Source: Calditrichaceae bacterium (GTDB taxonomy: Bacteria; Calditrichota; Calditrichia; Calditrichales; JBFXGD01). From it: DNA of 62,970 nucleotides. The notes beneath the pieces are model-generated. The model saw only the letters and a list, made by a program, of their open reading frames with translations. It did not search any database and was not told the origin of the DNA. The stretch is taken from positions 1 through 62,970 of the forward strand of contig JBFXLE010000026.1 of NCBI GenBank assembly GCA_050173015.1, written 5' to 3'. The position numbers and the translations under genes are program-made. Of this stretch, positions 10,759 through 62,970 are shown one piece after another; the first letter of the stretch is position 1, and each line of letters opens with the position of its first letter.

Positions 10759-10836
10759 ATTTCAGTCGTAAATTGCAGATCACCCTGAATTTCTTATAAT
10801 TTAATTCAGGATGATTCTGCATCTTTTGTAATTCAT

Positions 10837-11928: not shown

Positions 11929-12931
11929 TTATCGCCTCCAGATTTTCATACCAGGGTAAATTGAATCGTTGACGTTTACTGTAAGCATCCTCAAGCAATG
12001 CAATGGAAGGCCATACATCATTCGCAGATACAAGCGGCTTTGCGGAATTGCTCACCACTTCTATGAAATTATTGACAATTGGTTTTACAAAATCCGGATA
12101 TATCTTAACATTGGTAGGAAGTGAGATCGTCTCCGGTTTTCCCTGATTCTTTACCATCCTGATCCGGTCCCATTCAAAAATATTTCCTTCAATATATCCC
12201 AGTTCACCTGTAATTTTATAAAGATTGTCCAGATCGTTTAAGCGATTAAATCTGATTTCAATTTCGCATTCATCCTTACGCGCTTTTAAACAAGCCACTG
12301 ATTCCGGACCTCCGAATGAGTCATCGGTAAACGTCTCTAATTCAGGCTTTCCGTCCAGCCACCAGGTTATTGTATCCACCACATGAGAGCCGATATCCAT
12401 TAAAACGCCTTTTGCGGAGACCTTCGGATCAACATAGAAACCGGTTAAGCTGGGCCAGGCAAAAGTCATTCCCTCAAAATATTTTATCGACCTGAGTTTT
12501 CCTAACTCTCCCCGGGAAATTAGCTCTTTAATTTTCATAAAAGAGGGAAACATCCGTCGGGTATTGTTTACAGAAATAGTCACCTTATTTTCTTCGGCAA
12601 TCCGAATCATCTCTTTTACTTCGTCCACTTTTTCAACCAGTGGTTTTTCACAGAGTACGTGACTCCCACCCTTGAGAAAATCTGTCGCGACCTGAAAGTG
12701 TAAAAAATTCGGAACAACAATTATTACACCCTGCACCTTGCCAATTATGCGTTTGTAGTCGCTTTCATAACGATCGCTGCCAACTTCTTTAGCCATCTCC
12801 TCCGCGGTAGTCAGGTCGCGATCCACAAAGATCATGCGTTTTGCAATTTCCGGATGCGCTTTTAAAGCCGGCAGATAGTATCTACGGGCCGCAGCTCCGC
12901 ATCCGATCAATCCTAGAACATTTTCCGTCAT
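11921..12931 (-). CDS. Gfo/Idh/MocA family oxidoreductase
   Basis: IGCGAAA, HVLCEKP, GVLMDIGSH; likely start MTEN with GGAGA RBS. Confidence 0.92.
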   Translation of the reverse strand: MTENVLGLIGCGAAARRYYLPALKAHPEIAKRMIFVDRDLTTAEEMAKEVGSDRYESDYKRIIGKVQGVIIVVPNFLHFQVATDFLKGGSHVLCEKPLVEKVDEVKEMIRIAEENKVTISVNNTRRMFPSFMKIKELISRGELGKLRSIKYFEGMTFAWPSLTGFYVDPKVSAKGVLMDIGSHVVDTITWWLDGKPELETFTDDSFGGPESVACLKARKDECEIEIRFNRLNDLDNLYKITGELGYIEGNIFEWDRIRMVKNQGKPETISLPTNVKIYPDFVKPIVNNFIEVVSNSAKPLVSANDVWPSIALLEDAYSKRQRFNLPWYENLEAINV

Positions 12932-16734: not shown

Positions 16735-16804
16735 TTTTTTATTCAGTGTAATAAAAGTTCAAAACACCGGGGACAAATCGGCGGATTTCAATTTACTGCG
16801 TCAT

Positions 16805-18118
16805 CTATGTATCTTCTATTTCAATATCCTGATTTTCTAAATATTCGATTACTTCTTCGTCTTCAAAAATCAGATTATCAATGCTGGAAACCAAAGCGGC
16901 CATAAAAAACCAGAACCAGATTAATGAGCCATGTGTAAAATTTCCAAGAAATAAACGCACAAATAATCCCAACTGAACTCCGTTAAGCATATTAAAATAG
17001 AAATTATGATTATCATTCTCCGTGTTTAAAAGTGATTTTAAGAGACTGGCTCTTTTAAAAATCCAGTACATCCAAATAAACCAAACAATACTTGACAATC
17101 CCAATTCACCGATTAATTCGCCGTATAAATTATGGGATTCAAAGCGATAACTAAAATAGTAGCTCCTGGCTTCAGCAAAACAACCTATCCCCACTCCAAG
17201 CAGAGGTCTTTTGAACAGCATATCAATCCCATTGATCAGACCCAAAAACCGGTCAGAACTTGATCGGCTTCCATGAATTCCATCCAGTATGCTCATGATG
17301 TGATCAATATACTCTCCACCGGCAAGAGGAAGCGTCACAAAGAAAACGACAACAAAATAAAATATTGCCCGTCCCCTGTTCTCTGTGAAATATATAATTC
17401 CCGCGCCGATTGCTAAAAATCCCAAAAATCCACCTCTTGACTTGGAAACTATAACCCCTATGATCACAAAAGCCAGAGCAGCCCATAGAATGAATCTTCG
17501 GGTAGATCTTTTTTCATACAACAGACTGAAGTAGATAAGCGGTATGCCCTGATTAAGAGTATTCGCAAGAGCCACATGTCCGGCTGCGGCTCCAAATCTG
17601 CCAATCGCCACGGCACCGTAATCTTCTTCTATAACCACTCCGGTCAAATAATTAACAACCGGTTCATAACCGATCCACACGGTCATCAAAACAAATGTCC
17701 AGACAAGCTTCTTAAGATCTTCATTGCCCTGGACTGAAGAGACGATCATAATATAAAAAAGGACCATTTTTAGAAGTTCATACCCGCCTTCCTGCCATGA
17801 AGCCGCCACATCCAGTGCTTGTGGTACTGACAACATGCCTACCAGAAAAAACAACCATAGGTATCTTGAGATGGAATTTTGATTGGTGAGAATATTTGCG
17901 AATCCCTTTTCAGAAAATGCAATCGAAATAAAAACTACGATCGCCGCAATTAGCTCTATTCTCAAATCTCCCAACTCAGGATACATAATTCCAATCCTGG
18001 CGTTAATTATAATGAAATAAGAGATAACGCCGTAGATGGGCCTGAAAAAACTAAACACCAGAAATAGAATGCTTAGAATGGGTAAAATTATCTGAATTGA
18101 TTCTGCAGACGGTAACAT
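16805..18118 (-). CDS. O-antigen ligase/Wzy-type polymerase
   Basis: Polytopic membrane protein; SKSRGG, PLLGVGIG, SHNLY...GELG motifs. Confidence 0.85.
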   Translation of the reverse strand: MLPSAESIQIILPILSILFLVFSFFRPIYGVISYFIIINARIGIMYPELGDLRIELIAAIVVFISIAFSEKGFANILTNQNSISRYLWLFFLVGMLSVPQALDVAASWQEGGYELLKMVLFYIMIVSSVQGNEDLKKLVWTFVLMTVWIGYEPVVNYLTGVVIEEDYGAVAIGRFGAAAGHVALANTLNQGIPLIYFSLLYEKRSTRRFILWAALAFVIIGVIVSKSRGGFLGFLAIGAGIIYFTENRGRAIFYFVVVFFVTLPLAGGEYIDHIMSILDGIHGSRSSSDRFLGLINGIDMLFKRPLLGVGIGCFAEARSYYFSYRFESHNLYGELIGELGLSSIVWFIWMYWIFKRASLLKSLLNTENDNHNFYFNMLNGVQLGLFVRLFLGNFTHGSLIWFWFFMAALVSSIDNLIFEDEEVIEYLENQDIEIEDT

Positions 18119-48342: not shown

Positions 48343-50109
48343 TTACCAGGAATATTTCCCTTTTTCATACAGACTATCCGCAAGATCACTTTTCAATTGA
48401 AAAAGCCGTGTGCGGAGCTCGGCTCCTTTGGCCAGGATATCGAGATCGGCCAACGCGAGATCAAGCTCATCACCTTCGAGTATCGAGAGTAATGCGATCT
48501 TTGCCTGACTGATAATTTTGTTTACTTTGTCGGCAACACTTATCTTCGCGATCCTGATTCGATCCTGATCCGCGCCTTTTTTCTCAATATAGTAGGTTAC
48601 CCGTGATAAAACGCTGTCCATGACATAAACATCGGTAAACATATCAGCCAGCATTTCACCAAGTTGCTGTTCGTTTCTTAAACCCTGACCATATTTAATG
48701 ATGGACTCATTAAATACATATAATGCGATTGCTTTCACGTACTCCAGCGCTGTCTTTTCCGCATTGAGGATAGTGCTCTTAATATCGGGTTTCTTACCGG
48801 CTAAGAGTGTTTTTAATTCTTTTATTCGATCACGGAAAGGTAATTCTTCAGTCAGTGCTTTTTTGAGAAAATGTCCGGATATAATCTGGCGGTTTATTTC
48901 GTTTGTGCCTTCAAAAATACGATCCACACGTGTGTCTCTGGCTACAGCCGCGAGCGGATATTCTTCGGTATATCCATATCCTCCAAACACCTGAATCCCG
49001 TCATCCGAAGTCAGCCACAACGCTTCGCTTCCATACACTTTAACCATGGACGCCTCTGTGGCAAATGTTTCTATGGCCGATACAATGTGTTTATAATACT
49101 CGGGATCATCCGTGTTGATCTGGCTGATTGAATCATCGATATCACCCACCGTCCTGTACAAGATGCTGTCAAGATCATAAGTGCGGACAATCATGTTGGC
49201 AAATTTTGATTTAATCGCGCCAAATTTAGCTATCGGCTGTCCAAACTGATGACGTTCAAGCGCATATTTTGTTGATTCGTTAATACAGGCTTTACTGGCG
49301 CCAAGATCTGCAGCGCCTAATTTGTATCTGCCGATATTAAGGATATTAAAGGCAATCTGATGCCCTTTACCTATAATTCCGAGGACATTTTCGACCGGTA
49401 CATGTACATCATTCAAAATGACGCTCGCGGTACTTGATCCTTTATACCCCATTTTGACTTCTTCGGGACCGATCTCAACTCCGGGTGTTTCCGTTTCAAC
49501 CAGAAATGCTGTAAAATGCTCCCCATCCACTTTCGCGTAAACGATAACAAGTTTACACCAGGCCGCATTACTGATAAACTGTTTTGTACCATTTAAAATG
49601 TATTCTTTCCCGTCTTCGGTCAGCACAGCGGTTGTCCTGGCGGCAAGAGCGTCGGAGCCTGCCCCGGGTTCGGTCAAACCATAGGCGCTAATCCATTCCC
49701 CGCTGCCCACCTTGGGCAGATACTTCTTTTTTTGCTCTTCGCTGCCAAACAGAACTATCGGTAAAGTACCGATACCTGTATGCGCGGAGAATGTGACTCC
49801 GAAAGATCCGCTTTGTCCCATTGTCACTTTTTCATTAATGATGGTGGATGTAACCTTATCCAGCCCAAGTCCACCATATTCTTCCGGCACATCGACACTC
49901 AACAAACCAAGATCACCCAACTGCTTCATGATAGAACAGGTAAGTTCTCCGTTGAGTTTTTCGATTTCTTTCTTCTTCGGCAAAATCTGTTCAGTGGCAA
50001 ATTCCTCCGTCATCATAGCTATCTCATTCTGTTCCTCGGAAAATTTTTCCCGCGTGAAGATTTCTTCTTCACCAACGGGTTTAATCAAATACATGCCGCC
50101 TGTTTTCAT
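48343..50109 (-). CDS. fadE: Acyl-CoA dehydrogenase (long form)
   Basis: LTEPGAGSDA, GTKQFISN, R.QFGQPI, GGYGY, RIFEGTNEINR. Confidence 0.92.
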   Translation of the reverse strand: MKTGGMYLIKPVGEEEIFTREKFSEEQNEIAMMTEEFATEQILPKKKEIEKLNGELTCSIMKQLGDLGLLSVDVPEEYGGLGLDKVTSTIINEKVTMGQSGSFGVTFSAHTGIGTLPIVLFGSEEQKKKYLPKVGSGEWISAYGLTEPGAGSDALAARTTAVLTEDGKEYILNGTKQFISNAAWCKLVIVYAKVDGEHFTAFLVETETPGVEIGPEEVKMGYKGSSTASVILNDVHVPVENVLGIIGKGHQIAFNILNIGRYKLGAADLGASKACINESTKYALERHQFGQPIAKFGAIKSKFANMIVRTYDLDSILYRTVGDIDDSISQINTDDPEYYKHIVSAIETFATEASMVKVYGSEALWLTSDDGIQVFGGYGYTEEYPLAAVARDTRVDRIFEGTNEINRQIISGHFLKKALTEELPFRDRIKELKTLLAGKKPDIKSTILNAEKTALEYVKAIALYVFNESIIKYGQGLRNEQQLGEMLADMFTDVYVMDSVLSRVTYYIEKKGADQDRIRIAKISVADKVNKIISQAKIALLSILEGDELDLALADLDILAKGAELRTRLFQLKSDLADSLYEKGKYSW

Positions 50110-50155
50110 ATATTTTTCCTCCTGGTGGGTGAATACTTTTTTATAATATAATAAG

Positions 50156-50179
50156 AAATGAATGAATATTCATTCATTT
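50156..50179. promoter_or_regulatory. FadR (YsiA, TetR-family)-type operator
   Basis: Perfect 24-bp palindrome aaatgaatgaatattcattcattt, 47 bp upstream of fadE; matches the TGAATGANTANTCATTCA FadR box. Confidence 0.8.
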
Positions 50180-50502
50180 TTTATAAAAATTTTTTATCCC
50201 TTGTTCCGCATACAAAAATTTCACCGCTTTAATTATCATAAACATTTGTTTTATATATATTTGATCAATCATTGTTTAGTTTGGGCAAAATGTACATTTT
50301 TATTAGAATCAGTATAAATCATCTCCGCAAATCTGATTTCAAATCATCATCACAATTTTATTTATAGCTCGAATCAGAATCAAAATATATTTTTTTTTGA
50401 AAATATCGATTTATTATCACATATTTGACTTTCATGTTATTTGGTAAAATTGTGATATTAATAGTTAAAAATAAATTCGATAATTAAAGTTCCGTTCATC
50501 AT

Positions 50503-51195
50503 ATGAATTTATCATCATTCAGACCTGAATATTTACCAACATTGAAATTTTTTTGGAATGCGGCCCAGTGTGACGTATTGTACTTTACGGATCATTTTCA
50601 ATTTACAAAGAGAACAGCATTGAATATTTCTCCTTGTTTATCAGGAAAAGACAACCGCCTTCGTATTCCGGTAAAACACGATCATGAAACCAGACTTATT
50701 TTTGAAAAAAAAACGGATGATACAATAAATTGGAAACAACGACATTTTAAAACGATCCGGCATGCCTATGCTTCATATCCTTTTTCTTACTTTTATCTTC
50801 CCGAAATTGAAGAATTTTTCAAAAATACTAACGCAATGCTCTCGTCTTTTGTTATTGACTTAAACAGGTTGCTGATCAGGTTTTTATCATTAAATCTTAA
50901 AACTTACAGCGCCTCACAACAGCCTTTGGAAATGAATAATCATAAAGCCATCATATCCTGGTGCAAAACAAATAACGCGGATACCTGCATCAACTCACAG
51001 CACATTTTTGATAATGGCTGGCTGAATAAATCAGAACTTGAATCCGCCGGTATTAAAACTAAACATTTCGCCGATTTTCCCGAGTATAATATTTTTCGGA
51101 ACTATAAAGAATATTCAATTTTAAAGTTTATTTTACAATACGGTCCGGAAGCCGGTTATATGATAAAACAGTATTTACCCGGAAAACATACTTAA
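50503..51195 (+). CDS. WbqC-like protein
   Basis: RPEYLP, D.FQF.KR, L.IPV, W...H...I...Y...P pattern. Confidence 0.7.
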   Translation: MNLSSFRPEYLPTLKFFWNAAQCDVLYFTDHFQFTKRTALNISPCLSGKDNRLRIPVKHDHETRLIFEKKTDDTINWKQRHFKTIRHAYASYPFSYFYLPEIEEFFKNTNAMLSSFVIDLNRLLIRFLSLNLKTYSASQQPLEMNNHKAIISWCKTNNADTCINSQHIFDNGWLNKSELESAGIKTKHFADFPEYNIFRNYKEYSILKFILQYGPEAGYMIKQYLPGKHT

Positions 51196-51345
51196 CTTGA
51201 TTTTTTCGGGCGCATTTAGTAATTTTTAGTTTTATGTATTACAAAAAACCGATATGTTGATTGAACACCCATAAACAAGATAATTCTAAATACTTAGCCG
51301 ACAGAATAAAATAGATTGTTGCCAAGAAATCGAAAAAGGTAAAAA

Positions 51346-52089
51346 ATGACGGTTTTTGAAAAACTAATGACTGTTAAGGAACATAAAGGCGCGGGTTATC
51401 TTGTTCTTATCGATCCTGACAAAACAACGATTGACTCATTGCCGGGAATTATTGAAGAAGCCATAACCGCGGGAGTTGACGCTTTTCTTGTTGGTGGCAG
51501 TCTCTTATTGTCCCCGGATTTTGAATCATATCTGAAAACTTTCAAATTATATTCCGGCGATATTCCGGTGATTATTTTTCCCGGTGGGGTCCATCAAATA
51601 TCCGCGCGGGCTGATGCCATTCTCTACTTATCATTGTTAAGCGGAAGAAACGCGCATCATATTATCGGCAGCCAGGTAATTGCGGCTCCGATTATACACA
51701 GATTAAAACTGGAACCCATATCAACCGCCTATTTTTTGATAGAATCCGGGAGAGCTACCTCCGCTGAATTTATGAGCGGAACGACGCCTCTTCCCAGGCA
51801 TAAATCTGAAATCGCGATGGCGCACGCGATAGCGGCCAGCTATATGGGATTTCAGACTATTTACCTTGAAGGCGGGAGCGGAGCTGATTACTGTGTTCCT
51901 GATGAAATAATTTCTGTCATCAGTAAAACAGTGAAAACACCGATAATTGTCGGTGGCGGAATAAGGACGCCGGAAACCGCCGCGGAAAAAGTCGCTGCCG
52001 GGGCTTCTTTTATCGTAACCGGAAACGTCATCGAGCAGAACAATGATCCGGTTCTACTAAAAGCATTTGCCGATGCGATCCACAAATAA
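51346..52089 (+). CDS. Geranylgeranylglyceryl-phosphate synthase family (PcrB/GGGPS)
   Basis: LIDPDK, FLVGGS, IFPG, LLSGRN, YLEGGSGA, VGGGIR, IVTGN. Confidence 0.9.
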   Translation: MTVFEKLMTVKEHKGAGYLVLIDPDKTTIDSLPGIIEEAITAGVDAFLVGGSLLLSPDFESYLKTFKLYSGDIPVIIFPGGVHQISARADAILYLSLLSGRNAHHIIGSQVIAAPIIHRLKLEPISTAYFLIESGRATSAEFMSGTTPLPRHKSEIAMAHAIAASYMGFQTIYLEGGSGADYCVPDEIISVISKTVKTPIIVGGGIRTPETAAEKVAAGASFIVTGNVIEQNNDPVLLKAFADAIHK

Positions 52090-52104
52090 AAGTGACCTCA
52101 TAAA

Positions 52105-52686
52105 ATGAATCATAGCGAATTTATAAGAATACATCTCATAGAAAGCGCCGCCACAAAAGAGCGAATAGCCGACAACTGTACGGAGAATATTTCGCGCGCG
52201 GTTGAATTGATCAAAACCAGTATCACTAACGGCGGGAAAATATTGATTTGCGGAAACGGCGGCAGCGCGGCTGATGCCCAGCATCTCGCGGCCGAATTTA
52301 TAATCCGATTGAATCATGATATCATCCGTCCCGCCATACCCGCGATTGCCTTGACAACTGATACATCCATTCTGACAGCAGGCGGAAATGACATTGGTTT
52401 TAGCAATATTTTTTCCAGGCAGGTAGAGGCCCTTGGAAAAGCCGGCGATATTTTTTTAGGCATTTCTACAAGCGGAAATTCGGAAAACGTGCTGCGCGCC
52501 GCTCTTAAAGCTAAAGAAGCGGGTATGATGACTATTGGTTTTTTAGGAAACGATGGCGGTAAAGCGGCTAAAATATTTGATCATTCTATAAACATCCCCT
52601 CAGACAATACCCAGCACATCCAGGAAGGCCATATCACTGTCGGTCATATCATCTGTGAGTTGATTGAGCGCGATCTATATACCTGA
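52105..52686 (+). CDS. gmhA: Phosphoheptose (sedoheptulose-7-phosphate) isomerase
   Basis: CGNGGSAADAQH, GND, FSRQVEALG, ISTSGNS, HIQE.H. Confidence 0.93.
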   Translation: MNHSEFIRIHLIESAATKERIADNCTENISRAVELIKTSITNGGKILICGNGGSAADAQHLAAEFIIRLNHDIIRPAIPAIALTTDTSILTAGGNDIGFSNIFSRQVEALGKAGDIFLGISTSGNSENVLRAALKAKEAGMMTIGFLGNDGGKAAKIFDHSINIPSDNTQHIQEGHITVGHIICELIERDLYT

Positions 52687-52804
52687 TTGATTTTGTTTTT
52701 AATCACTATTTCAATACTTTCCATCTGTATATTCATTTACAATCATTTGAAAACAGTATGTAACTGATTACCGGGAACGAGACTAAACCAGACGGAGAAT
52801 TTTC

Positions 52805-53761
52805 ATGAGTGAAAGATATTTAATTACCGGAGGCGCGGGGTTTATAGGATCAAATATCGCGGAGCACCTTGTGAACAATGGAAATTTTGTGCGTATATTT
52901 GATAATTTTTCTACGGGAAAAATCCAGAATATTTCAGGACTGCCGGATAAAGTGGAAGTGGTAAATGGTGATATCCGATATTTAAACTCAGTACAGAAAG
53001 CCATGGAAAATATTGACTATGTGCTTCATCAGGCGGCCATGCCTTCCGTTCCGCGTTCCATTGAAACCCCGATAGAAAGCAACGAAGTTAATATAAACGG
53101 TACGCTCAACGTTTTGTATGCCGCTAAAGAAAAAGGTGTAAAGCGGGTGGTCTATGCCGCCTCATCCTCGGCCTATGGAGAATCCGAAATTCTACCCAAA
53201 GTTGAAACAATGAAACCATCTCCACTCTCTCCATACGCGGTAAATAAATTGACCTCGGAATATTATTGTTCTGTTTTTAACCATGTGTACGGGTTAGAAA
53301 CCGTAGCGTTAAGATATTTTAATATTTTCGGTCCGCGGCAAGATCCAAATTCCTACTACTCGGCGGTCATTCCAAAATTTATCAGAGCGTTTCTACTGGG
53401 GCAACCTCCCGTAATCTATGGCGACGGAACACAAAGCAGGGATTTTACCTACATCGAGAATGTGATTCAGGCAAATCTTCTGGCCTGTAAAGCGCCCGCC
53501 AAAGCCGCCGGCAAAGTGATGAATATCGCCTGCGGAAACAGGATAACATTAAATCAACTGGCGGATGAGATTAAGAAACTGCTGAATTCCGATATCAAAC
53601 CGATACACGGAGAGCCCCGGTTAGGAGATATCAAGCACTCTTTGGCTGATATCAGCCTGGCAAAAGATCTGATCGGATATGAGGAAAAAGTTGATGTAAT
53701 GACCGGGCTAAAGAAAACAGTTGATTGGTTTCTACAAAACAAATCATCTCTCGGTCTATAA
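52805..53761 (+). CDS. NDP-sugar epimerase (WbpP-like SDR)
   Basis: TGGAGFIGS, SVPRS, SPYAVNK, RYFNIFGPRQDP, GDGTQSRDF. Confidence 0.92.
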   Translation: MSERYLITGGAGFIGSNIAEHLVNNGNFVRIFDNFSTGKIQNISGLPDKVEVVNGDIRYLNSVQKAMENIDYVLHQAAMPSVPRSIETPIESNEVNINGTLNVLYAAKEKGVKRVVYAASSSAYGESEILPKVETMKPSPLSPYAVNKLTSEYYCSVFNHVYGLETVALRYFNIFGPRQDPNSYYSAVIPKFIRAFLLGQPPVIYGDGTQSRDFTYIENVIQANLLACKAPAKAAGKVMNIACGNRITLNQLADEIKKLLNSDIKPIHGEPRLGDIKHSLADISLAKDLIGYEEKVDVMTGLKKTVDWFLQNKSSLGL

Positions 53762-53778
53762 AATTGAATTCAATTATG

Positions 53779-53815
53779 AGGCTGTCTTAAAAGCAATTGA
53801 GACAGCCTTTTTTTT
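53779..53815 (+). terminator. Rho-independent terminator
   Basis: aggctgtct...agacagcct followed by a T-run. Confidence 0.88.
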
Positions 53816-54087
53816 ACTTATACCAATAATAGAACTATGAATAACCCTCATCGTTTTACCCGGATCCAGACCTTAATATTTTGAATCGATGATTACATTA
53901 TTCAAAAACAGTAAAAATCACCGGTCAATCATACCGCCGGTGAGGAAAAAGGGAATTTTTGAAAACAAGTAAAATTTTTACAAAAAGTGGTTCCGTTTTT
54001 TGGGGAAATGTAAATTCCGCTCGACAGTGGTGCGGTGGGAAGAAAAAGTCCCCAAAAATAAGGACCTTCGACCTTATTCAGATGTTT

Positions 54088-54252
54088 CTAAAAGAATATT
54101 CTATACATGGCAAATAATAGAGTTAAACATCCCCACCAAATCAGAACTCTTTTAATTCTAAATTCTTTAGCTCCACCTTGTGCAACAGCTGCCATTGCAC
54201 CCAAGAAAAGTACGATTGCAGCTAGAGATATGTCCCTTATTATCTCTAACAT
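54088..54252 (-). CDS. Small two-TM membrane protein (54 aa, below ORF-track cutoff); possible accessory immunity gene
   Basis: Translated manually: MLEIIRDISLAAIVLFLGAMAAVAQGGAKEFRIKRVLIWWGCLTLLFAMYRIFF*; start overlaps the RDD gene stop (ATGTTAG). Confidence 0.55.
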   Translation of the reverse strand: MLEIIRDISLAAIVLFLGAMAAVAQGGAKEFRIKRVLIWWGCLTLLFAMYRIFF

Positions 54253-54671
54253 TTTGTATAAAATGTTTTAAACAATAAATCCAGACCGGTCATCGGTTTA
54301 TCATTTTTATTTTTTATAAATACCGGCCCATTCAAACTAAGAAATAATAGAATCGCCATTATAAGATCTGATGTCTTATTTAGACCTAATAATATTATTA
54401 AAAAATATAGGCTGAATGCTAAGTTTTTTAAAACTAAGGTTAGCTTTTTTATATCATCCGTTTTTAGTGAAACTAGTTTCACGTAAAGCAGTCTTTCTCC
54501 CGGTGTCATCTTTATTACTAATAGAGAAATAGTAGTATGTATAACATAAAGCAACAAGGTTTTATACAAAATTAAAACAATGGTGTGTTCAGACAGCATA
54601 CCATTAATAAAAGCTGGTATAAATGCTATTATCAAATCGATAATTGTTGCTAAAATTCTTTTTATAACCAT
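54246..54671 (-). CDS. RDD-family membrane protein in the immunity position
   Basis: KRILATIID, TPGERL, terminal D..FKT RDD pattern; directly downstream of Rhs tip 1. Confidence 0.7.
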   Translation of the reverse strand: MVIKRILATIIDLIIAFIPAFINGMLSEHTIVLILYKTLLLYVIHTTISLLVIKMTPGERLLYVKLVSLKTDDIKKLTLVLKNLAFSLYFLIILLGLNKTSDLIMAILLFLSLNGPVFIKNKNDKPMTGLDLLFKTFYTKC

Positions 54672-54715
54672 TTTTAATTCCTAATATATTATTACCAATT
54701 GGCAATTTAACTAAA

Positions 54716-55731
54716 TTAGTCTGTTTGCTGATTTTGTTCTTCTTCTTTTTTCCTTCTTTCTTCTTCTTCTCTTCTCTTACGTTCTTCTTCCTGCCTTTTT
54801 TTTTCTTCAGCTTCAAGTTGCTTAGCCTGTTCTTCAACCCATTTCTTTACATCTCCGGTCAGATTACCAGCATCTAAGAATGATTTTAATTGATGCAGTA
54901 TTGTACCTGTTTTTTTGCCAGCATTAGATACATTTACACCCATCTCAAGTAAATCATATATCCCTGCCAGTACTATAGCATTTTCCTTTTTCATTCCCCC
55001 AGCAACAAGCGTCGGTACCATTACACCATCTGCAAGACTGGTGCTTTTATCTTGAAGACCAGAAACAATATCCATTATTCCAGTATCAATGGCATACAAA
55101 CTTGTAGTATAACCAGCACCAGCACCAAAGGCAGCACCTATGCCACCAGTCTGAGCTATTCCATAACTTGTTATAGCAATTCCGAGAGCACCGCCACCAA
55201 CTTTGGCAACACCTCCCCAAAATGTAGGCCAATCTTTAAAACCATCTGGATCAAATCTATTTAAAGGATTATTTCTAACATAAACATATGGTGAGAGTCC
55301 GTATAACTGATGAGCCATTATACGCTGTGGGCTCCATTGAGTAAGGGCAGGATCTGATGTTAACCATCTCCCAGTGGCCGGATCATAATACCTGGCGCCG
55401 AAATAATACCAGTTCAAACCGCTTTCTTCATCGAGCTCCTTGCCGCCAAATTTGTAAATATCATCGGTCATGGCGTTATTGACGCTGCGCCCCGGCATTT
55501 GCAGACCAAAGGGGTAGTAATCATTATAGGCTTCCGCCTGGCCAAATTCATTTACCGTCACCCTGATATTCCCCAGGTGATCTTTCAGGTAGTAGTAACG
55601 GTTACTATGCGTCACCGTAATGTTCATGATTTCCGTATCCCGCTGATATTCATCGTCTGTTACCACCAGCTTTATCTCAAAAGTCCGTTGCTTTTCACCG
55701 GGGTTCAGATAAAGTGACTTAGTGAAGACAT
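54716..55731 (-). CDS. Rhs core + toxin tip, cassette 1 (orphan; Gly-rich hydrophobic tip with charged tail)
   Basis: DHLGN, YYPFG, GKELD, ARYYDP, NNPLNRFDPDG; homology to cassette 4 begins at 55731, internal Met at 55627. Confidence 0.85.
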
Positions 55732-55769
55732 TGTCATTACGTAAACTTGCTAAAAAGTGTGGTGAAAAG

Positions 55770-55794
55770 AAAAAGCCCCTCAAAATCAGGGGCT
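55770..55794 (-). terminator. Rho-independent terminator closing cassette 2
   Basis: agcccct-caaaatc-aggggct with U-tract on the minus strand. Confidence 0.8.
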
Positions 55795-55799
55795 GGGTT

Positions 55800-56237
55800 T
55801 TAGGAAAATTCTTGTCTTTTTCGCCTTAAAGCCGAAAATGCCATCATTAGAACATACACTAATCCAGCAATTGGAATACGTATAAAACTAACTTTATCAA
55901 CTTCAATCCAAAAAAATAATACACATAAAATAAAAATATCTAAAAGGACATTTAGAACACTCGATAAAACATATTTATTCTTTAAAGATTTACTTTTCTT
56001 AATTAAAAAATTAATTGTCTCTTTATAATGCTCGCTCCAATCGTTCAATGTAAAGATTCGATAGATAAACAAAATAAAGAAGAAATAGACAACTTTACCT
56101 TGCCCACTTAAATAATCAGCCCTATCCTTTGAGAAGAATTCATTTATAATAATTAATAAAATTGTTATCCCATAAAACCAAGCTAAATAGTTTAATTCTT
56201 TTTTGGGGTCTATCCTGGAATTTCTTTTAACTTTCAT
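55800..56237 (-). CDS. Putative membrane immunity protein of cassette 2 (~4 TM)
   Basis: AT-rich hydrophobic ORF right after the Rhs tip; paralogue of 61032-61487. Confidence 0.7.
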   Translation of the reverse strand: MKVKRNSRIDPKKELNYLAWFYGITILLIIINEFFSKDRADYLSGQGKVVYFFFILFIYRIFTLNDWSEHYKETINFLIKKSKSLKNKYVLSSVLNVLLDIFILCVLFFWIEVDKVSFIRIPIAGLVYVLMMAFSALRRKRQEFS

Positions 56238-56258
56238 CTTGCACCTATCATATTAATA

Positions 56259-57221
56259 TTATTGGTCTTTTAATTCTTCTTCAATTGCCCCAGCCGTATT
56301 TCCAGCTGTAGCCGAAGCAGCGTCAGAAACACCAACATTTTCTAATGTCATCACTGTATTGGCTTTCTTTGCTGCCTTATCAGCAACGGCATTTGCATTT
56401 GCTGCATTCGCTGCATTTTTACGATAGGTTGCTCGTGATGTCTTAGAATTTGTTCTCGTACCTTGCAATTTCTGAGTAGCTTTCCCAGCTTGTACACCAG
56501 TGTCACCAGCATTTTGTATGGTCTTAGTTATTTTTGCGTCTACTGCATCACCAACTTTGGAAGCACCAGCACCAAGTAAAGCATCCATTGCTACGCCTTT
56601 CGCTGTAATCTCTTGGCCACTGGCCGCAGATTTTGCCACACCTTCTCCAGCACTTATAACGGCGGTCCCTACCGCCGCAATTGTTTTCCCTGCTTTGTAA
56701 GCTTTCGTAAGTGATGACAAACCGCCACTTGCTAATCCAGCCGCTGCGCTGATAGCAACACTGCCATAATCTATTTTAGTCAAATCTTGACCAGTAGCGT
56801 AATTGTTCGCAACTTGCAATCCTATATCTACAGCTGCGCCAATAACTGCACCCCAAACGAAACGACCATCAGGGTCTCTTTTCCCAATTGGATCATTTAA
56901 AGAATAATTATATGGTGACCATGAAGGATAACTTGAAGCCAGCGGATCAACGCTCAACCACCGCCCAATAGCTGGGTCATAGTACCTGGCGCCGAAATAG
57001 TACCAGTTCAAACCGCTTTCCTCATCGAGCTCCTTGCCGCCGAATTTGTAGATATCATCGGTCATGGCGTTATTGACGCTGCGTCCCGGCATTTGCAGAC
57101 CAAAGGGATAGTAGTCATTATATGCTTCCGCCTGGCCAAATTCATTTACCGTCACCCTGATATTCCCCAGGTGATCTTTTAGGTAGTAATAACGGTTACT
57201 ATGTGTCACGGTAATGTTCAT
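56259..57221 (-). CDS. Rhs core + toxin tip, cassette 2 (Ala/Gly-rich)
   Basis: Rhs core ending NDPIGKRDPDG, then a variable tip. Confidence 0.88.
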   Translation of the reverse strand: MNITVTHSNRYYYLKDHLGNIRVTVNEFGQAEAYNDYYPFGLQMPGRSVNNAMTDDIYKFGGKELDEESGLNWYYFGARYYDPAIGRWLSVDPLASSYPSWSPYNYSLNDPIGKRDPDGRFVWGAVIGAAVDIGLQVANNYATGQDLTKIDYGSVAISAAAGLASGGLSSLTKAYKAGKTIAAVGTAVISAGEGVAKSAASGQEITAKGVAMDALLGAGASKVGDAVDAKITKTIQNAGDTGVQAGKATQKLQGTRTNSKTSRATYRKNAANAANANAVADKAAKKANTVMTLENVGVSDAASATAGNTAGAIEEELKDQ

Positions 57222-57549
57222 GATTTCCGTATCCCGCTGACTATCAGTTACTCCATTTCGTTTAAATTGATGGGCAGAAATTTTATTTTTTAAAAAGAAA
57301 TGCTCTAATAAATATAATCAACGAAACTTTTAAATAAAAATGGATAATTATTTACTGTAAACCGGGAGCCTTTACCATCGGCGCCGCAATAAATAATTAT
57401 GTTTTTAAAAACAATATGCTGCTTGTTTCACCTGGTAAAATGTGCCTGCAAGCCCGCAATCACAGAAGATTACTCGACAAAAAGAATCGGGATTCCCGCT
57501 ACGATCCGGTCCAATTGGTCATTACGTTAACTTGCTTTGTGGAATCGTG

Positions 57550-57592
57550 AAAAAAAACAGATGCTATCTCAAAAACTATTAATACAGCATCT
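57550..57592 (-). terminator. Terminator closing cassette 3
   Basis: agatgct...agcatct with U-tract on the minus strand. Confidence 0.6.
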
Positions 57593-57617
57593 TTGTAAGT
57601 TTTACCGAAAATCATCA

Positions 57618-57989
57618 TTATGAATAATCGTCATCTGTTTTGCCCGGATCAACAGCCTGATATTTTGAATGATACTTTCGAAATAATCTGATTAAAATCA
57701 CAACTATTACCAACCAAATACCAATAGAAAGAGGATTTAGTTCAATATTTTCTTTGTAAAGATCAAATATGAATACACCTGCCAAAAGGAAAAAATAGTT
57801 AACACTATCTCTAACCAATAACGCTTCAGCGTTATTTTGGCTTTTCTTCCATTTAAATTGATCAACAAATAAACTCAATCCCGTAAATTTTTCAATTATA
57901 TAGGTAATTCCAACTATTCCCAAAAACAATGAATTAGCTTTAATAATTGAATAACATATTTTAAAATAAAGCAAGGCTAACGAATCCAT
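57618..57989 (-). CDS. Putative membrane immunity protein of cassette 3 (~3 TM)
   Basis: Hydrophobic 123-aa ORF with GGAG RBS after the tip; identical to 59387-59758. Confidence 0.72.
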   Translation of the reverse strand: MDSLALLYFKICYSIIKANSLFLGIVGITYIIEKFTGLSLFVDQFKWKKSQNNAEALLVRDSVNYFFLLAGVFIFDLYKENIELNPLSIGIWLVIVVILIRLFRKYHSKYQAVDPGKTDDDYS

Positions 57990-58010
57990 AATACAGAAAA
58001 TCTCCGAAAA

Positions 58011-58990
58011 TTATTTCGAAAAAATATAATCCCGCACGCCTAAACCAAAATCGACATATGGGTTTCTTGGCCCCCCATGACCAGAAGCTGCATTCTTTGC
58101 GACAATTGACCCGCCAATCCCATCAATAATTGCTTTATTTCTTAAATAAAAGAATTTCGTTGCCTGAACGTATTGTTGAGCCATTCGGCCGGTCCTTAAT
58201 AAAGCTGTGCTTACCTGGGCGCCGGTTATAAGTTGTGTATTACCGGGTGCCATATATTCCAGCATACCGGGCCCTGATTTAAGATTTGACATCATTGCCA
58301 CGGTTAATCTATGATCATTAGCCCACATCTGGCCATTTAAATAGCCTGTATTACGTTGTACACTCCCAAAAGTTGAGAAATACTCTCCCCAGCCAATTGG
58401 ATACCATCCTGTCCATAACCAGTCATATCCAAGCCAGGTTATTGGATCATTAAAACTTGCTGTGCCATAATATTGTTTTGAAAAATGGCCACCTGCTTCG
58501 TTAGTATAATTTTCTAAATAACTTTGGGTTGAACCTTTCCATGTGCCCCAACCAGGTAACGATCCATTCGAAGGCGCCCAAACAGCATCCCATCCTCCTT
58601 CCCATTCATCTTGCATTTGATCCGTCGGTGACAATCCATAAAGATCAATATAACGAATCGGATTATTGTAGACATAGTTATATGGCGTGAAGCTTGGAAA
58701 AAAAGCTGTAAGTGGATCCACCGTTAGCCACCTTCCAATAAGTGGGTTATAATCCCTGGCGCCGAAATAGTACCAGTTCAAACCGCTTTCCTCATCGAGC
58801 TCCTTGCCGCCGAATTTGTAGATATCGTCGGTCATGGCGTTATTGACGCTGCGTCCCGGCATTTGCAGACCAAAGGGGTAGTAGTCATTATAGGCTTCCG
58901 CCTGGCCAAATTCATTTACCGTCACCTGATATTCCCCAGGTGATCTTTCAGGTAGTAATAACGGTTACTATGTGTCACCGTAATGTTCAT
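58011..58990 (-). pseudogene. Rhs core + Trp/Gly-rich tip, cassette 3, with a 1-bp frameshift near 58925
   Basis: gtcacctgat versus gtcaccctgat in the other four cores disconnects MNITV (58990) from the core. Confidence 0.75.
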
Positions 58991-59318
58991 GATTTCCGTA
59001 TCCCGCTGACTATCAGTTACTCCATTTCGTTTAAATTGATGGGCAGAAATTTTATTTTTTAAAAAGAAATGCTCTAATAAATATAATCAACGAAACTTTT
59101 AAATAAAAATGGATAATTATTTACTGTAAACCGGGAGCCTTTACCATCGGCGCCGCAATAAATAATTATGTTTTTAAAAACAATATGCTGCTTGTTTCAC
59201 CTGGTAAAATGTGCCTGCAAGCCCGCAATCACAGAAGATTACTCGACAAAAAGAATCGGGATTCCCGCTACGATCCGGTCCAATTGGTCATTACGTTAAC
59301 TTGCTTTGTGGAATCGTG

Positions 59319-59361
59319 AAAAAAAACAGATGCTATCTCAAAAACTATTAATACAGCATCT
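59319..59361 (-). terminator. Terminator closing cassette 4
   Basis: Copy of 57550-57592. Confidence 0.6.
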
Positions 59362-59386
59362 TTGTAAGTTTTACCGAAAATCATCA

Positions 59387-59758
59387 TTATGAATAATCGT
59401 CATCTGTTTTGCCCGGATCAACAGCCTGATATTTTGAATGATACTTTCGAAATAATCTGATTAAAATCACAACTATTACCAACCAAATACCAATAGAAAG
59501 AGGATTTAGTTCAATATTTTCTTTGTAAAGATCAAATATGAATACACCTGCCAAAAGGAAAAAATAGTTAACACTATCTCTAACCAATAACGCTTCAGCG
59601 TTATTTTGGCTTTTCTTCCATTTAAATTGATCAACAAATAAACTCAATCCCGTAAATTTTTCAATTATATAGGTAATTCCAACTATTCCCAAAAACAATG
59701 AATTAGCTTTAATAATTGAATAACATATTTTAAAATAAAGCAAGGCTAACGAATCCAT
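59387..59758 (-). CDS. Putative membrane immunity protein of cassette 4
   Basis: Identical to 57618-57989. Confidence 0.72.
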   Translation of the reverse strand: MDSLALLYFKICYSIIKANSLFLGIVGITYIIEKFTGLSLFVDQFKWKKSQNNAEALLVRDSVNYFFLLAGVFIFDLYKENIELNPLSIGIWLVIVVILIRLFRKYHSKYQAVDPGKTDDDYS

Positions 59759-59779
59759 AATACAGAAAATCTCCGAAAA

Positions 59780-60889
59780 TTATTTCGAAAAAATATAATC
59801 CCGCACGCCTAAACCAAAATCGACATATGGGTTTCTTGGCCCCCCATGACCAGAAGCTGCATTCTTTGCGACAATTGACCCGCCAATCCCATCAATAATT
59901 GCTTTATTTCTTAAATAAAAGAATTTCGTTGCCTGAACGTATTGTTGAGCCATTCGGCCGGTCCTTAATAAAGCTGTGCTTACCTGGGCGCCGGTTATAA
60001 GTTGTGTATTACCGGGTGCCATATATTCCAGCATACCGGGCCCTGATTTAAGATTTGACATCATTGCCACGGTTAATCTATGATCATTAGCCCACATCTG
60101 GCCATTTAAATAGCCTGTATTACGTTGTACACTCCCAAAAGTTGAGAAATACTCTCCCCAGCCAATTGGATACCATCCTGTCCATAACCAGTCATATCCA
60201 AGCCAGGTTATTGGATCATTAAAACTTGCTGTGCCATAATATTGTTTTGAAAAATGGCCACCTGCTTCGTTAGTATAATTTTCTAAATAACTTTGGGTTG
60301 AACCTTTCCATGTGCCCCAACCAGGTAACGATCCATTCGAAGGCGCCCAAACAGCATCCCATCCTCCTTCCCATTCATCTTGCATTTGATCCGTCGGTGA
60401 CAATCCATAAAGATCAATATAACGAATCGGATTATTGTAGACATAGTTATATGGCGTGAAGCTTGGAAAAAAAGCTGTAAGTGGATCCACCGTTAGCCAC
60501 CTTCCAATAAGCGGATCATAATCTCTTGCGCCGAAATAATACCAGTTCAAACCGCTTTCTTCATCGAGCTCCTTACCGCCGAATTTGTAGATATCGTCGG
60601 TCATGGCGTTATTGACGCTGCGCCCCGGCATTTGCAAACCAAAGGGGTAGTAATCATTATAGGCTTCCGCCTGGCCAAATTCATTTACCGTCACCCTGAT
60701 ATTCCCCAGGTGATCTTTTAGGTAGTAATAACGGTTACTATGTGTCACCGTAATGTTCATGATTTCCGTATCCCGCTGATATTCATCGTCTGTTACCACC
60801 AGCTTTATCTCAAAAGTCCGTTGCTTTTCACCGGGATTCAGATAAAGTGACTTAGTGAAGACATAGCCGGTGTGGCTAAAAAACTCCAT
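59780..60889 (-). CDS. Rhs core + Trp/Gly-rich tip, cassette 4
   Basis: Rhs core ending NNPIRYIDLYG; internal Met at 60760; shares the upstream VFTKSLY... segment with cassette 1. Confidence 0.85.
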   Translation of the reverse strand: MEFFSHTGYVFTKSLYLNPGEKQRTFEIKLVVTDDEYQRDTEIMNITVTHSNRYYYLKDHLGNIRVTVNEFGQAEAYNDYYPFGLQMPGRSVNNAMTDDIYKFGGKELDEESGLNWYYFGARDYDPLIGRWLTVDPLTAFFPSFTPYNYVYNNPIRYIDLYGLSPTDQMQDEWEGGWDAVWAPSNGSLPGWGTWKGSTQSYLENYTNEAGGHFSKQYYGTASFNDPITWLGYDWLWTGWYPIGWGEYFSTFGSVQRNTGYLNGQMWANDHRLTVAMMSNLKSGPGMLEYMAPGNTQLITGAQVSTALLRTGRMAQQYVQATKFFYLRNKAIIDGIGGSIVAKNAASGHGGPRNPYVDFGLGVRDYIFSK

Positions 60890-60988
60890 CGATATACTAC
60901 ATTATTTAAAAACGCAGCACAGCGAAATGGTATTGCGCTACTCCGCGGAAGCCTTGAATAAGGTTTAATTTGCCTTTTTGCAACAAAC

Positions 60989-61015
60989 AAAAAAGCCCAT
61001 AAAAAATCATGGGCT
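60989..61015 (-). terminator. Terminator closing cassette 5
   Basis: agcccat...atgggct with U-tract on the minus strand. Confidence 0.8.
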
Positions 61016-61031
61016 AATTTAAATCACCTAA

Positions 61032-61487
61032 TTATCTTCTGTTCTTTGAGATTTTTCTTTTCTTCCACGAGAGCGAAAATCCTATCATTAGAACATACAC
61101 TAAACCTGCAATGGGAATATTTACAAAAGCAACTCTTTCAAGTTCAATCCAAAAGAATAGGCAAAATAAAATAAAAAGATCAAGTAATACATTTAACAGG
61201 CTTATTTTAACATAGCTATCTAATTTTATAGAACTAAATAAGAAGTTTAGTGTCTCACGATAATATTGGCTCCAAACATGGAAAGTAAAAAGTCTCATTA
61301 CAAAGATAATAAAAAAAACATAAATTGCTTTTCCTTGATTACTTAGATAATCTGCTCTATCTACTGACAATATCTCCGTAACTAAAACTATTAAAGTGAT
61401 ACCACCAAAAAACCATGCTAAATAATTGATTTCTTTTTTTCTTTCAGGGCGAATTTTTCTGTCTGTCTCGAAGAGAAGGTTTTTCAT
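61032..61487 (-). CDS. Putative membrane immunity protein of cassette 5
   Basis: ATGA overlap with the tip stop; paralogue of 55800-56237 (NYLAWF, DRADYLS.QGK, LNVLLD, IPIAGLVYVLM). Confidence 0.75.
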   Translation of the reverse strand: MKNLLFETDRKIRPERKKEINYLAWFFGGITLIVLVTEILSVDRADYLSNQGKAIYVFFIIFVMRLFTFHVWSQYYRETLNFLFSSIKLDSYVKISLLNVLLDLFILFCLFFWIELERVAFVNIPIAGLVYVLMIGFSLSWKKRKISKNRR

Positions 61488-62443
61488 TTTTCCTTCTCCT
61501 CTTTATCTATGATTCTTGCTGCCGAACTTGCAGTTACCCCTGTTGTAGATGAAGCAGCATTTGAAGCTCCGACATTTTCAAGAGTCATAGCTGTATTTGC
61601 TTTTTTTGCTGCTTTTTGGAAATTAGAATTCACCGTTGTAGCATTAGCTGCATTCTTCTTGTAGGTAGCACGTGATGTTTTTGAATTTGTTCTTGTTCCC
61701 TGTAGCTTTTTGGCCGCTTGGCCTGCTATTTCACCAGCATCACCTGCTTTTTGAACTTGTTTGGTTAGGACATTGTCAACGGCGTCTCCAGCTTTTGAAG
61801 CTACTCCACCAGCCACAGCATCTATAATGACACCACCTGCTGTAACTTGTTCGCCGCTTATTAGTTTTTTAGCTGCACCTTCACTGGCGCTTACTCCAGC
61901 ACTTATTGCTACTTGGGCAATCCTTGAGCCTTTTGCAAAGGTAGACAGCCCACCACTCGCCAAGCCTGCTGCTGCACTCACACCTATTTTAGCCCAGCCT
62001 TCAGAAGTAGGCATATAATTACCAGTTTCATAAACCTGCAAACCGTACTCAACAGCCGCTCCAATTACGGCACCCCAAACAGAACGGCCATTTGGGTCTC
62101 GTTTTCCAATCGGATCATTCATTGAATAGTTATAAGGTGACCATGAAGGATAAAAATCAGCCAATGGATCCACACTCATCCATCTACCAGTCGCTGGGTC
62201 ATAATACCTTGCGCCAAAATAGTACCAGTTCAAACCGCTTTCTTCATCGAGCTCCTTGCCGCCGAATTTGTAGATATCATCGGTCATGGCGTTATTGACA
62301 CTGCGTCCCGGCATTTGCAGACCAAAGGGGTAGTAGTCATTATAGGCTTCCGCCTGGCCAAATTCATTTACCGTCACCCTGATATTCCCCACGTGATCTT
62401 TCAGGTAGTAGTAACGGTTACTATGCGTCACGGTAATGTTCAT
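61484..62443 (-). CDS. Rhs core + toxin tip, cassette 5 (Ala/Gly-rich, paralogue of cassette 2)
   Basis: Core ending NDPIGKRDPNG; tip shares KLQGTRTNSKTSRATY and KAAKKANT.MTLENVG with cassette 2. Confidence 0.88.
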   Translation of the reverse strand: MNITVTHSNRYYYLKDHVGNIRVTVNEFGQAEAYNDYYPFGLQMPGRSVNNAMTDDIYKFGGKELDEESGLNWYYFGARYYDPATGRWMSVDPLADFYPSWSPYNYSMNDPIGKRDPNGRSVWGAVIGAAVEYGLQVYETGNYMPTSEGWAKIGVSAAAGLASGGLSTFAKGSRIAQVAISAGVSASEGAAKKLISGEQVTAGGVIIDAVAGGVASKAGDAVDNVLTKQVQKAGDAGEIAGQAAKKLQGTRTNSKTSRATYKKNAANATTVNSNFQKAAKKANTAMTLENVGASNAASSTTGVTASSAARIIDKEEKEK

Positions 62444-62785
62444 GATTTCCGTATCCCGCTGATATTCAGTTACTCCATTTCGTTTAAATTGATGGGCAGA
62501 AATTTTATTTTTTAAAAAGAAATGCTCTAATAAATATAATCAACGAAACTTTTAAATGAAAATGGATATTTATTTGCTTTAAACCGGCAGACTTTACCAT
62601 CGGCGCATCAATAAAAATTCTGTGTATAAAAACCATATGACAATTATGTGACCCGGTAAAATACCGCGTGTATGTTCTCAATCCCTAAAGATTTTCCAAT
62701 CCATAGAATCAAAATATTTATTACGTTTCAATTGGTGATTCGGTGGGTCCTAGTTAAAATTATTGAACGGTGTTCTGATAGAAAT

Positions 62786-62812
62786 AAAAAAGCCCCCGGA
62801 GTTCAGGGGCTT
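62786..62812 (-). terminator. Terminator downstream of 5S rRNA
   Basis: aagcccc...ggggctt with U-tract on the minus strand. Confidence 0.8.
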
Positions 62813-62861
62813 AAAAATTTTTATATATGAAGTTTGTTCTGGATTTTTTACAAAAAAAAAT

Positions 62862-62970
62862 CTGGTGACGACTTACTCTCCCGTCCCAGCCATAGGAACA
62901 GTACCATCAGCGCTGGCGGGCTTAACTACTCTGTTCGGAATGGGAAGAGGTGTTTCCCCGCCGCTATTGT
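62862..62970 (-). rRNA. rrf: 5S ribosomal RNA (5' few nt beyond the window edge)
   Basis: Minus strand ...gaaacacctcttcccattccgaacagagtagttaagc...gatggtact...gggagagtaagtcgtcaccag carries the canonical 5S motifs. Confidence 0.97.

Follow-up and report, generated by a model that had tools for sequence, protein, structure and literature searches.

The window analysed here is the whole of contig C26 of a Calditrichaceae bacterium (62,970 nucleotides (nt), its 3′ limit falling within a 5S ribosomal RNA (rRNA) gene), and the system in question is an array of five minus-strand Rhs cassettes at 54056-62789. With slightly more confidence than doubt, we read this array as a strain-variable stack of five head-less orphan tip/immunity modules, derived from a branch of Rhs proteins devoid of a shell and kept mainly for immunity. 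The cassettes look like displaced orphan modules because they are truncated and lack a signal peptide, with neither a parent gene nor a type VI secretion system (T6SS) in the genome. As delineated by open reading frame (ORF) listing, repeat finding and domain search, the array lies between the terminator of the 5S rRNA gene and convergent housekeeping genes. Each cassette consists of an Rhs-associated core with a variable tip, then a small membrane-protein ORF, then a hairpin with a T-run, which in c1 is delayed by an extra 54-amino acid (aa) membrane ORF. The repeat finder delineated a single family of five copies, with spacings of 1594, 1770, 1769 and 1683 nt. A first-pass annotation, made from the DNA letters, had already described five such minus-strand units immediately downstream of a 5S rRNA gene and its terminator. 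The units are borne out by the ORFs, the repeat family, the TIGR03696 matches (five of five) and the hairpins, and their neighbourhood by the Rfam match and the terminator. The features are as follows, from the rRNA side to the housekeeping side.

62860-62970, minus strand: 5S rRNA gene, 5′ end cut off at the contig end (Rfam RF00001, 78.9 bits).
62790-62812, minus strand: intrinsic terminator of the rRNA (rrn) operon, 9-bp GC-rich stem and T-run (centroid -15.6 kcal/mol).
62444-62789, minus strand: leader B, copy 1, non-coding (31% GC), with homology to the spacers preceding c2 and c3 (repeat family D3, 83%; alignment).
61484-62443, minus strand: c5, MNITV-start Rhs core (~62090-62443) and tip Y′, 319 aa (TIGR03696, 66.2 bits).
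61032-61487, minus strand: i5, 151-aa membrane ORF, immunity candidate with three transmembrane (TM)-like segments, its start overlapping the c5 stop by 4 nt (ORF list).
60994-61015, minus strand: terminator hairpin following i5 (-15.3 kcal/mol, z -4.2).
59780-60889, minus strand: c4, with a type A remnant (~60761-60871) of a PKD-like head, a core starting with the MNITV ATG at 60760, and tip X (ORF, TIGR03696).
59387-59758, minus strand: i4, 123-aa membrane ORF, identical to i3 (ORF list, TM-like segments).
59328-59361, minus strand: hairpin and T-run following i4, with an identical copy after i3 at 57559-57592 (-13.3 kcal/mol, z -2.0).
58994-59327, minus strand: leader B, copy 2, preceding c3 (repeat family D3, 99% to the c2 copy; alignment).
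58011-58993, minus strand: c3, MNITV core with a 1-nt deletion at ~58926-58928, followed by tip X; ORF listed as 58011-58925 with a GTG start (alignment; split match with a stop).
57618-57989, minus strand: i3, 123-aa membrane ORF (ORF list, TM-like segments).
57222-57617, minus strand: leader B, copy 3, preceding c2, with the i3 terminator hairpin at its 5′ end (repeat, alignment).
56259-57221, minus strand: c2, MNITV-start Rhs core and tip Y, 320 aa (TIGR03696, 70.6 bits).
55800-56237, minus strand: i2, 145-aa membrane ORF, immunity candidate (ORF list, TM-like segments).
55774-55794, minus strand: terminator hairpin following i2 (hairpin and fold analysis).
54716-55783, minus strand: c1, with a type A head remnant, a core starting with the MNITV ATG at 55627, and tip Z (Gly/Ala-rich, with a Lys/Glu-rich tail) (ORF, TIGR03696).
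54246-54671, minus strand: i1, 141-aa membrane ORF, four TM-like segments, weak RDD-family match (22.5 bits for a cut-off of 24.1).
54056-54252, minus strand: 54-aa ORF with two TM segments (54088-54252) and closing hairpin with T-run (54056-54079) (ORF list, fold).

All five cassettes match TIGR03696 (RHS repeat-associated core), with 60.9-70.6 bits for a cut-off of 32.5. In the five-copy alignment, a nearly invariant block of ~266 nt begins ~21 nt ahead of the MNITV ATG and ends at the GARYYDP codons, and the cores are 91-99% identical across cassettes. The in-frame MNITV core which had been announced for each cassette is found in four of the five; it fails in c3, where one G has been lost from a G-run of the core (~58926-58928) and the frame is broken. 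A search of the PDB placed residues 10-121 of c2 on the C-terminal ~110 residues of the TccC3 shell region, with the alignment reaching the cleavage motif, and the matches of the core comprise TcdB2-TccC3, YenC2, Tse5 and RhsA. The best PDB match of c2 was mosquito SGS1, with an alignment reaching into the Gly/Ala-rich start of tip Y. The Asp of xVDP and the first Asp of DPDG (c1, c2), DPNG (c5) or DLYG (c3, c4) are present in all five; these positions align with the TccC3 protease region and would be the catalytic ones. None of the five ORFs has a Pfam match to the YD shell (PF05593 / PF25023).

Two kinds of 5′ end are observed. In type A (c1 and c4), the frame is open for ~36 codons upstream of MNITV and ends at the same point in both copies. 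This segment is the 3′ half of a PKD-like head, since it aligns to residues 70-134 of the heads of proteins with a signal peptide–PKD–core–tip order from G002, a closed genome of the same order (43% identity, E 2.6e-8). In type B (c2, c3 and c5), homology to type A stops ~21-30 nt upstream of the ATG, with ~8-10 codons kept, and the 5′ part is replaced by the non-coding leader B (350-400 nt, three copies 83-99% identical), the first copy of which begins directly after the rrn terminator. The leaders are 31-35% GC. Neither 110 fetched loci (772 kb) nor the remainder of the genome gave a homologue of leader B by blastn or tblastx, and it has no Rfam match. A signal peptide and a complete head domain are absent from all five cassettes, whose ORFs begin either in the core or in a head fragment. 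At the level of the alignments, all five are demonstrably 5′-truncated versions of head-bearing genes, with two truncation points, and would presumably not be exportable on their own.

The complete relatives are short proteins. Searching a protein database returned 3884 short core homologues at E <= 0.001, the best ones being 61-70% identical in the core, and the nearest named homologues are placed in Calditrichota by their NCBI names. In Calditrichota and other members of the FCB group, complete members follow a common plan: a Sec-type signal peptide, a small beta-rich head, a core corresponding to the final ~110 aa of the Rhs fold (the self-cleaving plug), a tip and an immunity gene. Two head types occur, PKD-like (~120 aa) and CBM96/DNRLRE (~100-490 aa), with Pfam matches to PKD in P0036 and to CBM96 in P0022, P0121 and P0122. 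The best 120 of the 3884 were sorted by a crude rule, signal peptides being called by hydropathy and by eye, with no dedicated predictor. In 15 of them, a start resembling a signal peptide leads to a 117-139-aa head adjoining the core; 8 begin at the core (two being the window's own), 57 carry head fragments and 40 do not fit the motif. At 389-813 aa, the complete relatives leave no room for a YD cocoon, and they gave no Pfam YD match. The full-length YD-repeat parent expected at first pass was thus the wrong kind of gene, the nearest complete relatives being short exported proteins without a YD shell.

One of these relatives is of direct relevance to the window. P0121, the best match among longer proteins, is an 813-aa metagenomic protein with a signal-peptide-like start, a head of CBM96/DNRLRE and disaggregatase-repeat type, a core and a tip. 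Because its tip is identical to that of c2 at 175 of 200 positions (87.5%; core 90/118), tip Y is, by this comparison, used on a complete exported toxin elsewhere in nature. The downstream ORF i2 has 8 homologue clusters, one of which, P0243 (81% identical), shares its contig count and its longest contig with P0121. Tips Z and Y are each found in one of the 85 other genomes of the phylum.

Related arrays were then compared in 40 relatives, 20 of which have core matches. Outside the genome studied here (G000, a draft assembly of 54 contigs and 4.34 Mb, 97.5% complete), 90 of 95 matches lie in frames of at most 560 aa and 5 in frames of at least 900 aa. The G002 array consists of complete small genes (260-435 aa), each of which encodes, behind an N-terminus resembling a signal peptide, a PKD-like domain (PF18911, below cut-off), then core and tip; Ntox33 was recognized as one of the tips, and the downstream genes differ among units. 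This genome has only a broken piece of a P0122-type head. In G003, another closed genome of the same order, all 8 core matches lie in frames of at most 560 aa and all 17 matches to the 791-aa toxin P0122 start at residue 391 or later, which leaves no complete head. Going by these matches, orphan-only arrays are not peculiar to the draft G000, the closed G003 being in the same situation. An rRNA gene was found beside none of eight related array loci, and the rrn position looks particular to this lineage. The same-genus genome G001 has no Rhs core, and its syntenic contig, which ends ~46 nt past the epimerase terminator, is uninformative on the locus. As to near-identical arrays elsewhere, the best hit reached 59% identity among genome contigs and 52% among metagenome contigs.

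Some particularities of these related loci can be mentioned. In G002, a TcA-like 2613-aa frame stands beside a 2522-aa frame ending in an Rhs core (locus L015, G002:C1:86000-100000). The latter (1680 aa of it within the fetched locus) resembles a TcB-TcC fusion and would be the partner in a Tc-toxin-like pair. In G003 (locus L016), an insertion sequence (IS) transposase at 9381-10967 lies between two divergent head-less arrays, one of which adjoins it. Two Rhs cores of this locus (11021-12394 and 16074-17543) are split, between KELDEE and YYFGARYYDP, by an insert of ~135 aa annotated as PF15711, ILEI-like.

The search for a parent gene in this genome gave concordant results. The first-pass annotation had called the array parent-less and had advised a BLASTN search of the core against the whole genome for a full-length rhs gene: none was located. 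Outside C26, blastn of the whole array found only a 103-nt piece of the 5S gene on C7 and a 126-nt repeat on C10. TIGR03696 matches at six places, one on C4 and the others in the five cassettes, the open frames concerned being 262-373 aa long. The C4 core, in a 262-aa frame, shares no detectable DNA similarity with the array. In tblastn searches of G000, the long Rhs/Tc-like frames of relatives match only the cores, and three head-bearing proteins of ~800 aa match only the cores and the c2 and c5 tips, without any match to the heads. As for the YD shell, PF05593 has no match genome-wide and TIGR01643 a single marginal one (E 0.094); PF05593 also missed the 2522-aa frame of G002, which makes this a weak test, and more weight is placed on frame lengths and tblastn. 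The assembly contains neither a T6SS sheath (PF05943, VipB) nor PAAR (PF05488). The parent-less state is thus supported by the absence of a second copy of the core DNA, the short frames, the lack of head or shell matches and the contig of another strain, described below, which runs from 5S through a leader into a cassette.

Two side observations were made in the same genome. The C4 gene (G000:C4:37520-39095; L024 5521-7096), the only other Rhs-core gene, encodes 253 aa, in which a signal-peptide-like start is followed by the latter half of an Rhs core and by a tip, and its end is overlapped by a 279-aa FGE-sulfatase-like ORF. The C-terminal ~100 aa of a 758-aa protein from a relative match dozens of places in G000, the toxin ORFs being without this segment, which is presumably a C-terminal sorting domain of type IX secretion.

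Strain variation at the locus was analysed by mapping contigs and unitigs of four public sequencing runs onto 53000-62970; such unitigs cannot be phased across the repeated core of ~280 nt, so that for the order of the cassettes we depend on the original assembly. Run X1, which holds 92% of the sampled words, may be the source run. Its depth is 34-40 over the array and 70 over the c4 copy, a twofold value as expected for a collapsed c3/c4 duplicate. Run X3, from another study, yielded a 5878-nt contig which comprises the 5S end and leader B (62873-62502), 35 nt of diverged leader, and then the sequence from 55648 onward (c1 core, tip Z, i1 and the housekeeping flank), 6853 nt being skipped. 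The X3 strain has a single cassette behind the same 5S gene, without a head. Only 3 differences with the window are found in the ~2.3 kb of flank, immunity gene and tip, compared to 21 in the core; of the 13 in its 5′ part, 10 agree with c2. The X3 leader is a third allele, with 35 nt replaced and 8 changes in 45 nt of the proximal leader. The breakpoints lie at the core, where recombination exchanging tips through the core would place them. Joints at low depth in X1 (55793>56958, depth 6.8; 59268>62786, depth 9.5) suggest that other arrangements coexist in this sample as minority forms. With only one cassette after this 5S gene in a near-identical strain, the array is seen to undergo rearrangement by recombination.

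Behind the near-identical cores stand three tip types (Z, Y/Y′ and X), and homologous tips are paired with homologous downstream ORFs. Each of these small ORFs has 2-4 TM-like segments. The tips are not AT-rich, as had been described at first pass: they are 40-45% GC, like the genome, and the AT-rich parts are the immunity genes (26.5-29% GC) and the leaders. Between c5 and c2, identity falls from 94% in the core to 59% in the tip, and i2 and i5 are 55% identical. The proportions of nonsynonymous (pN) and synonymous (pS) differences are 0.26 and 0.74 for tip Y versus Y′, and 0.29 and 0.60 for i2 versus i5; both pairs have, by these values, diverged as coding sequences. Units c3 and c4 share 1125 nt without a mismatch, their 11 differences being all within the core, and represent a recent duplication. 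The c3 toxin frame is broken, yet i3 is intact and identical to i4.

Because small residues abound in tips Y and Z (G+A of 0.32-0.35 and 0.23) and all immunity candidates are multi-pass membrane proteins, our guess is that the tips may be membrane-targeting toxins. For the five toxins and four immunity ORFs, Pfam gave only two sub-threshold matches, DUF3886 and RDD. Tips X and Y gave nothing at or above 0.9 in the ESM Atlas, and no structure match above TM 0.5; the tips were thus assigned to no family. Tip X, compared to 1.84 billion representatives, had 7 matches (its own cluster, four short proteins of 161-315 aa and two weak repeats), none of them a long parent. A complex prediction for tip Y with i2 scored 0.00, without controls, and is not used as evidence.

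How such a stack may have come about and be maintained can now be considered. In the reading that we favour, the cassettes have lost their signal peptide and head at two truncation points. The stack is built and reshuffled by homologous recombination across the near-identical ~270-nt core and the ~350-nt leader, as shown by the c3/c4 duplication, the one-cassette sister allele and the minority joints. The membrane immunity proteins would protect the cell from neighbours deploying the same tips on full-length toxins. The immunity genes would be the selected part, and the toxin halves young hitch-hikers and a substrate for recombination. Such a reserve of tips could not at present be armed, because this genome has no parent gene. 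Several points weigh against this proposal. Four of the five toxin ORFs, tips included, are still open, where decay is expected under selection for immunity only, except in a young array. For the MNITV Met, the ribosome-binding score is -4.5 kcal/mol (median of the contig genes -3.7, random 20-mers -1.6), every unit has its own terminator, leader B is retained in three cassettes and in the X3 allele, and the c5 stop overlaps the i5 start. Orphan Rhs-CT/RhsI pairs can indeed be expressed from internal promoters in Salmonella, as reported in PMC7043789. Moreover, the immunity role of the membrane ORFs is deduced from position and co-variation only, the matching contig statistics no more than suggest that P0243 and P0121 are neighbours on the same contig, and in a draft of 54 contigs (97.5% complete) a parent could sit in unassembled sequence.

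Most of these features would be accommodated by autonomous units, already suggested at first pass, an explanation to which we give about half the credence of the former. The leader-B cassettes, at least, would be transcribed on their own and produce an MNITV-start, head-less protein of ~320 aa, acting like a toxin–antitoxin (TA) system or released by another route. This protein would cleave after the core and free a membrane-active tip inside the producer, restrained by the membrane immunity protein. The intact ORFs in four of five cassettes, the unit-wise terminators, a ribosome-binding score no worse than that of the median gene, and MNITV being the first possible start in c2 and c5 argue for it. 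So do the conserved Asp positions mentioned above, with their presumed catalytic role. Leader B and an MNITV core lie directly behind the rrn terminator both in G000 and in the X3 strain, and the C4 protein, with its signal-peptide-like start, half core and tip, tells that short forms are in use here. Orphan Rhs-CT/RhsI pairs of Salmonella, with internal promoters and a behaviour of type II TA systems, provide a precedent (PMC7043789). On the other hand, no cassette has a signal peptide and all five are demonstrably truncated from head-bearing genes. A promoter scan found 37 candidates, not above the 30.7 +/- 5.2 of shuffled sequences, it is in the proximal leader that the alleles differ most (X3), and c3 is frameshifted. 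A bolder version, somewhat more doubtful still, would see shell-less Rhs-core proteins as a delivery class of their own, with a core that self-cleaves without a cocoon, and the leader-B cassettes as live, TA-like selfish genes stacked behind rrn. The rrn and core sequences would then serve as recombination anchors, and read-through from rrn possibly as the source of transcription.

Two other explanations have lost most of their appeal. The first-pass annotation had proposed a remote silent library, from which gene conversion would transfer tips to a full-length rhs-type gene located elsewhere in this genome. Tips are indeed moved at the locus by core recombination, and the classical orphan-module model, as presented in a review (PMC4436062), goes in this direction. 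However, blastn of the array finds no other core copy in the genome, the sole other Rhs core (C4) has no detectable DNA similarity to it and lies in a 262-aa frame, and no head or shell homologue is present. With no homologous target in the assembly, this proposal is not supported and looks very improbable. Even less credible is an assembly artefact, in which the array would really trail a full-length gene and be wrongly joined to the rrn repeat. The contig does end in the 5S repeat, and unitigs cannot check the cassette order across repeated cores. Nevertheless, the c5-type leader is bridged from 5S by X1 record 7 (62528-62873) and X3 record 17 (62502-62873), and from the core by X4 record 31 (62337-62740). 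The X3 contig continues into a cassette and the housekeeping flank, and the twofold depth backs the c3/c4 duplication. The misassembly next to rrn that had been feared at first pass is contradicted, since the three runs together bridge 5S, leader and core.

The surroundings of the array show a few further features. A short dispersed repeat at 53901-54026 is 79% identical to G000:C10:85306-85451 and 76% identical to a site in G001, and corresponds to no tRNA or Rfam family. Loose ends of X1 and X3 contigs are found at 53991 and 54026. At the other side, 103 nt of the 5S gene (62844-62946) have a 100% identical copy at the start of contig C7 (G000:C7:25-127); the depth of this piece in X1, ~5-fold that of single-copy sequence, is consistent with several rrn copies. 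Among the ORFs listed for 50000-62970, none stood out as a recombinase, as judged without a domain search of the flanks. A region of 27-35% GC at 50100-51300 surrounds a 230-aa ORF (50503-51195), for a contig mean of 39.5%.

Rhs biology has been built on the YD cocoon, which hides the toxin until delivery. The locus and its relatives reveal a populous, unstudied Rhs branch which keeps only the core plug, fused to small Sec-exported heads. That the closed G003 carries only head-less modules raises the question of whether core cleavage and toxin hand-over proceed without a shell. It may also be asked whether orphan-only arrays are kept for immunity or as self-maintaining TA-like units. The one- and five-cassette alleles in near-identical strains provide a natural before/after pair for array growth. 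Our literature search found nothing on Rhs in this phylum, Caldithrix included, and, among titles and abstract openings, no description of the shell-less architecture of signal peptide, head, core and tip.

Comparison with known systems helps to situate the array. In Bacteroidales, orphan immunity genes, as well as those of a Salmonella Typhi islet, are reportedly kept where the matching toxins cannot be fired. Compared with such immunity islands, the toxin halves of the window are mostly intact, and the modules lie behind an rrn operon. With respect to the C-terminal plug of TcC/Rhs proteins, the core of the window is the plug only, and the cocoon that it should close is missing. The array works like the orphan rhs-CT/rhsI modules of Enterobacteria, which are also tandem head-less core-tip ORFs with an immunity gene each, sharing a core that supports recombination and differing in content by strain, according to the review (PMC4436062). 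There, orphan modules are defined as head-less cassettes downstream of a full-length toxin gene, and they trail a YD-shell rhs gene delivered by T6SS. In contrast, the array of the window starts at the rrn terminator, with no parent, YD shell, T6SS sheath or PAAR in the assembly, and does not have the position which defines an orphan in these terms (PMC4436062).

The TA-like Rhs-CT/RhsI modules of Salmonella Typhimurium are likewise head-less, with an in-frame internal start and an adjoining immunity gene, and illustrate a route for keeping orphans without export (PMC7043789). Promoters and toxicity were measured in that system, whereas the present one is known from sequence and has membrane proteins as immunity candidates (PMC7043789). 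WapA-CT1 of S. suis, one of the Sec-dependent toxins of Gram-positives, resembles the complete relatives, with a signal peptide and a DNRLRE/CBM96-type domain before the core and a polymorphic tip, and its truncated downstream orphan, which has no signal peptide and is not delivered, resembles the cassettes of the window (PMC12704120). WapA nevertheless keeps a large YD barrel enclosing the toxin, whereas the shell-less relatives (389-813 aa) are without it (PMC12704120). The theme of orphan tips and immunity genes is thus already known; what is new here is the shell-less architecture, together with the one- and five-cassette alleles.

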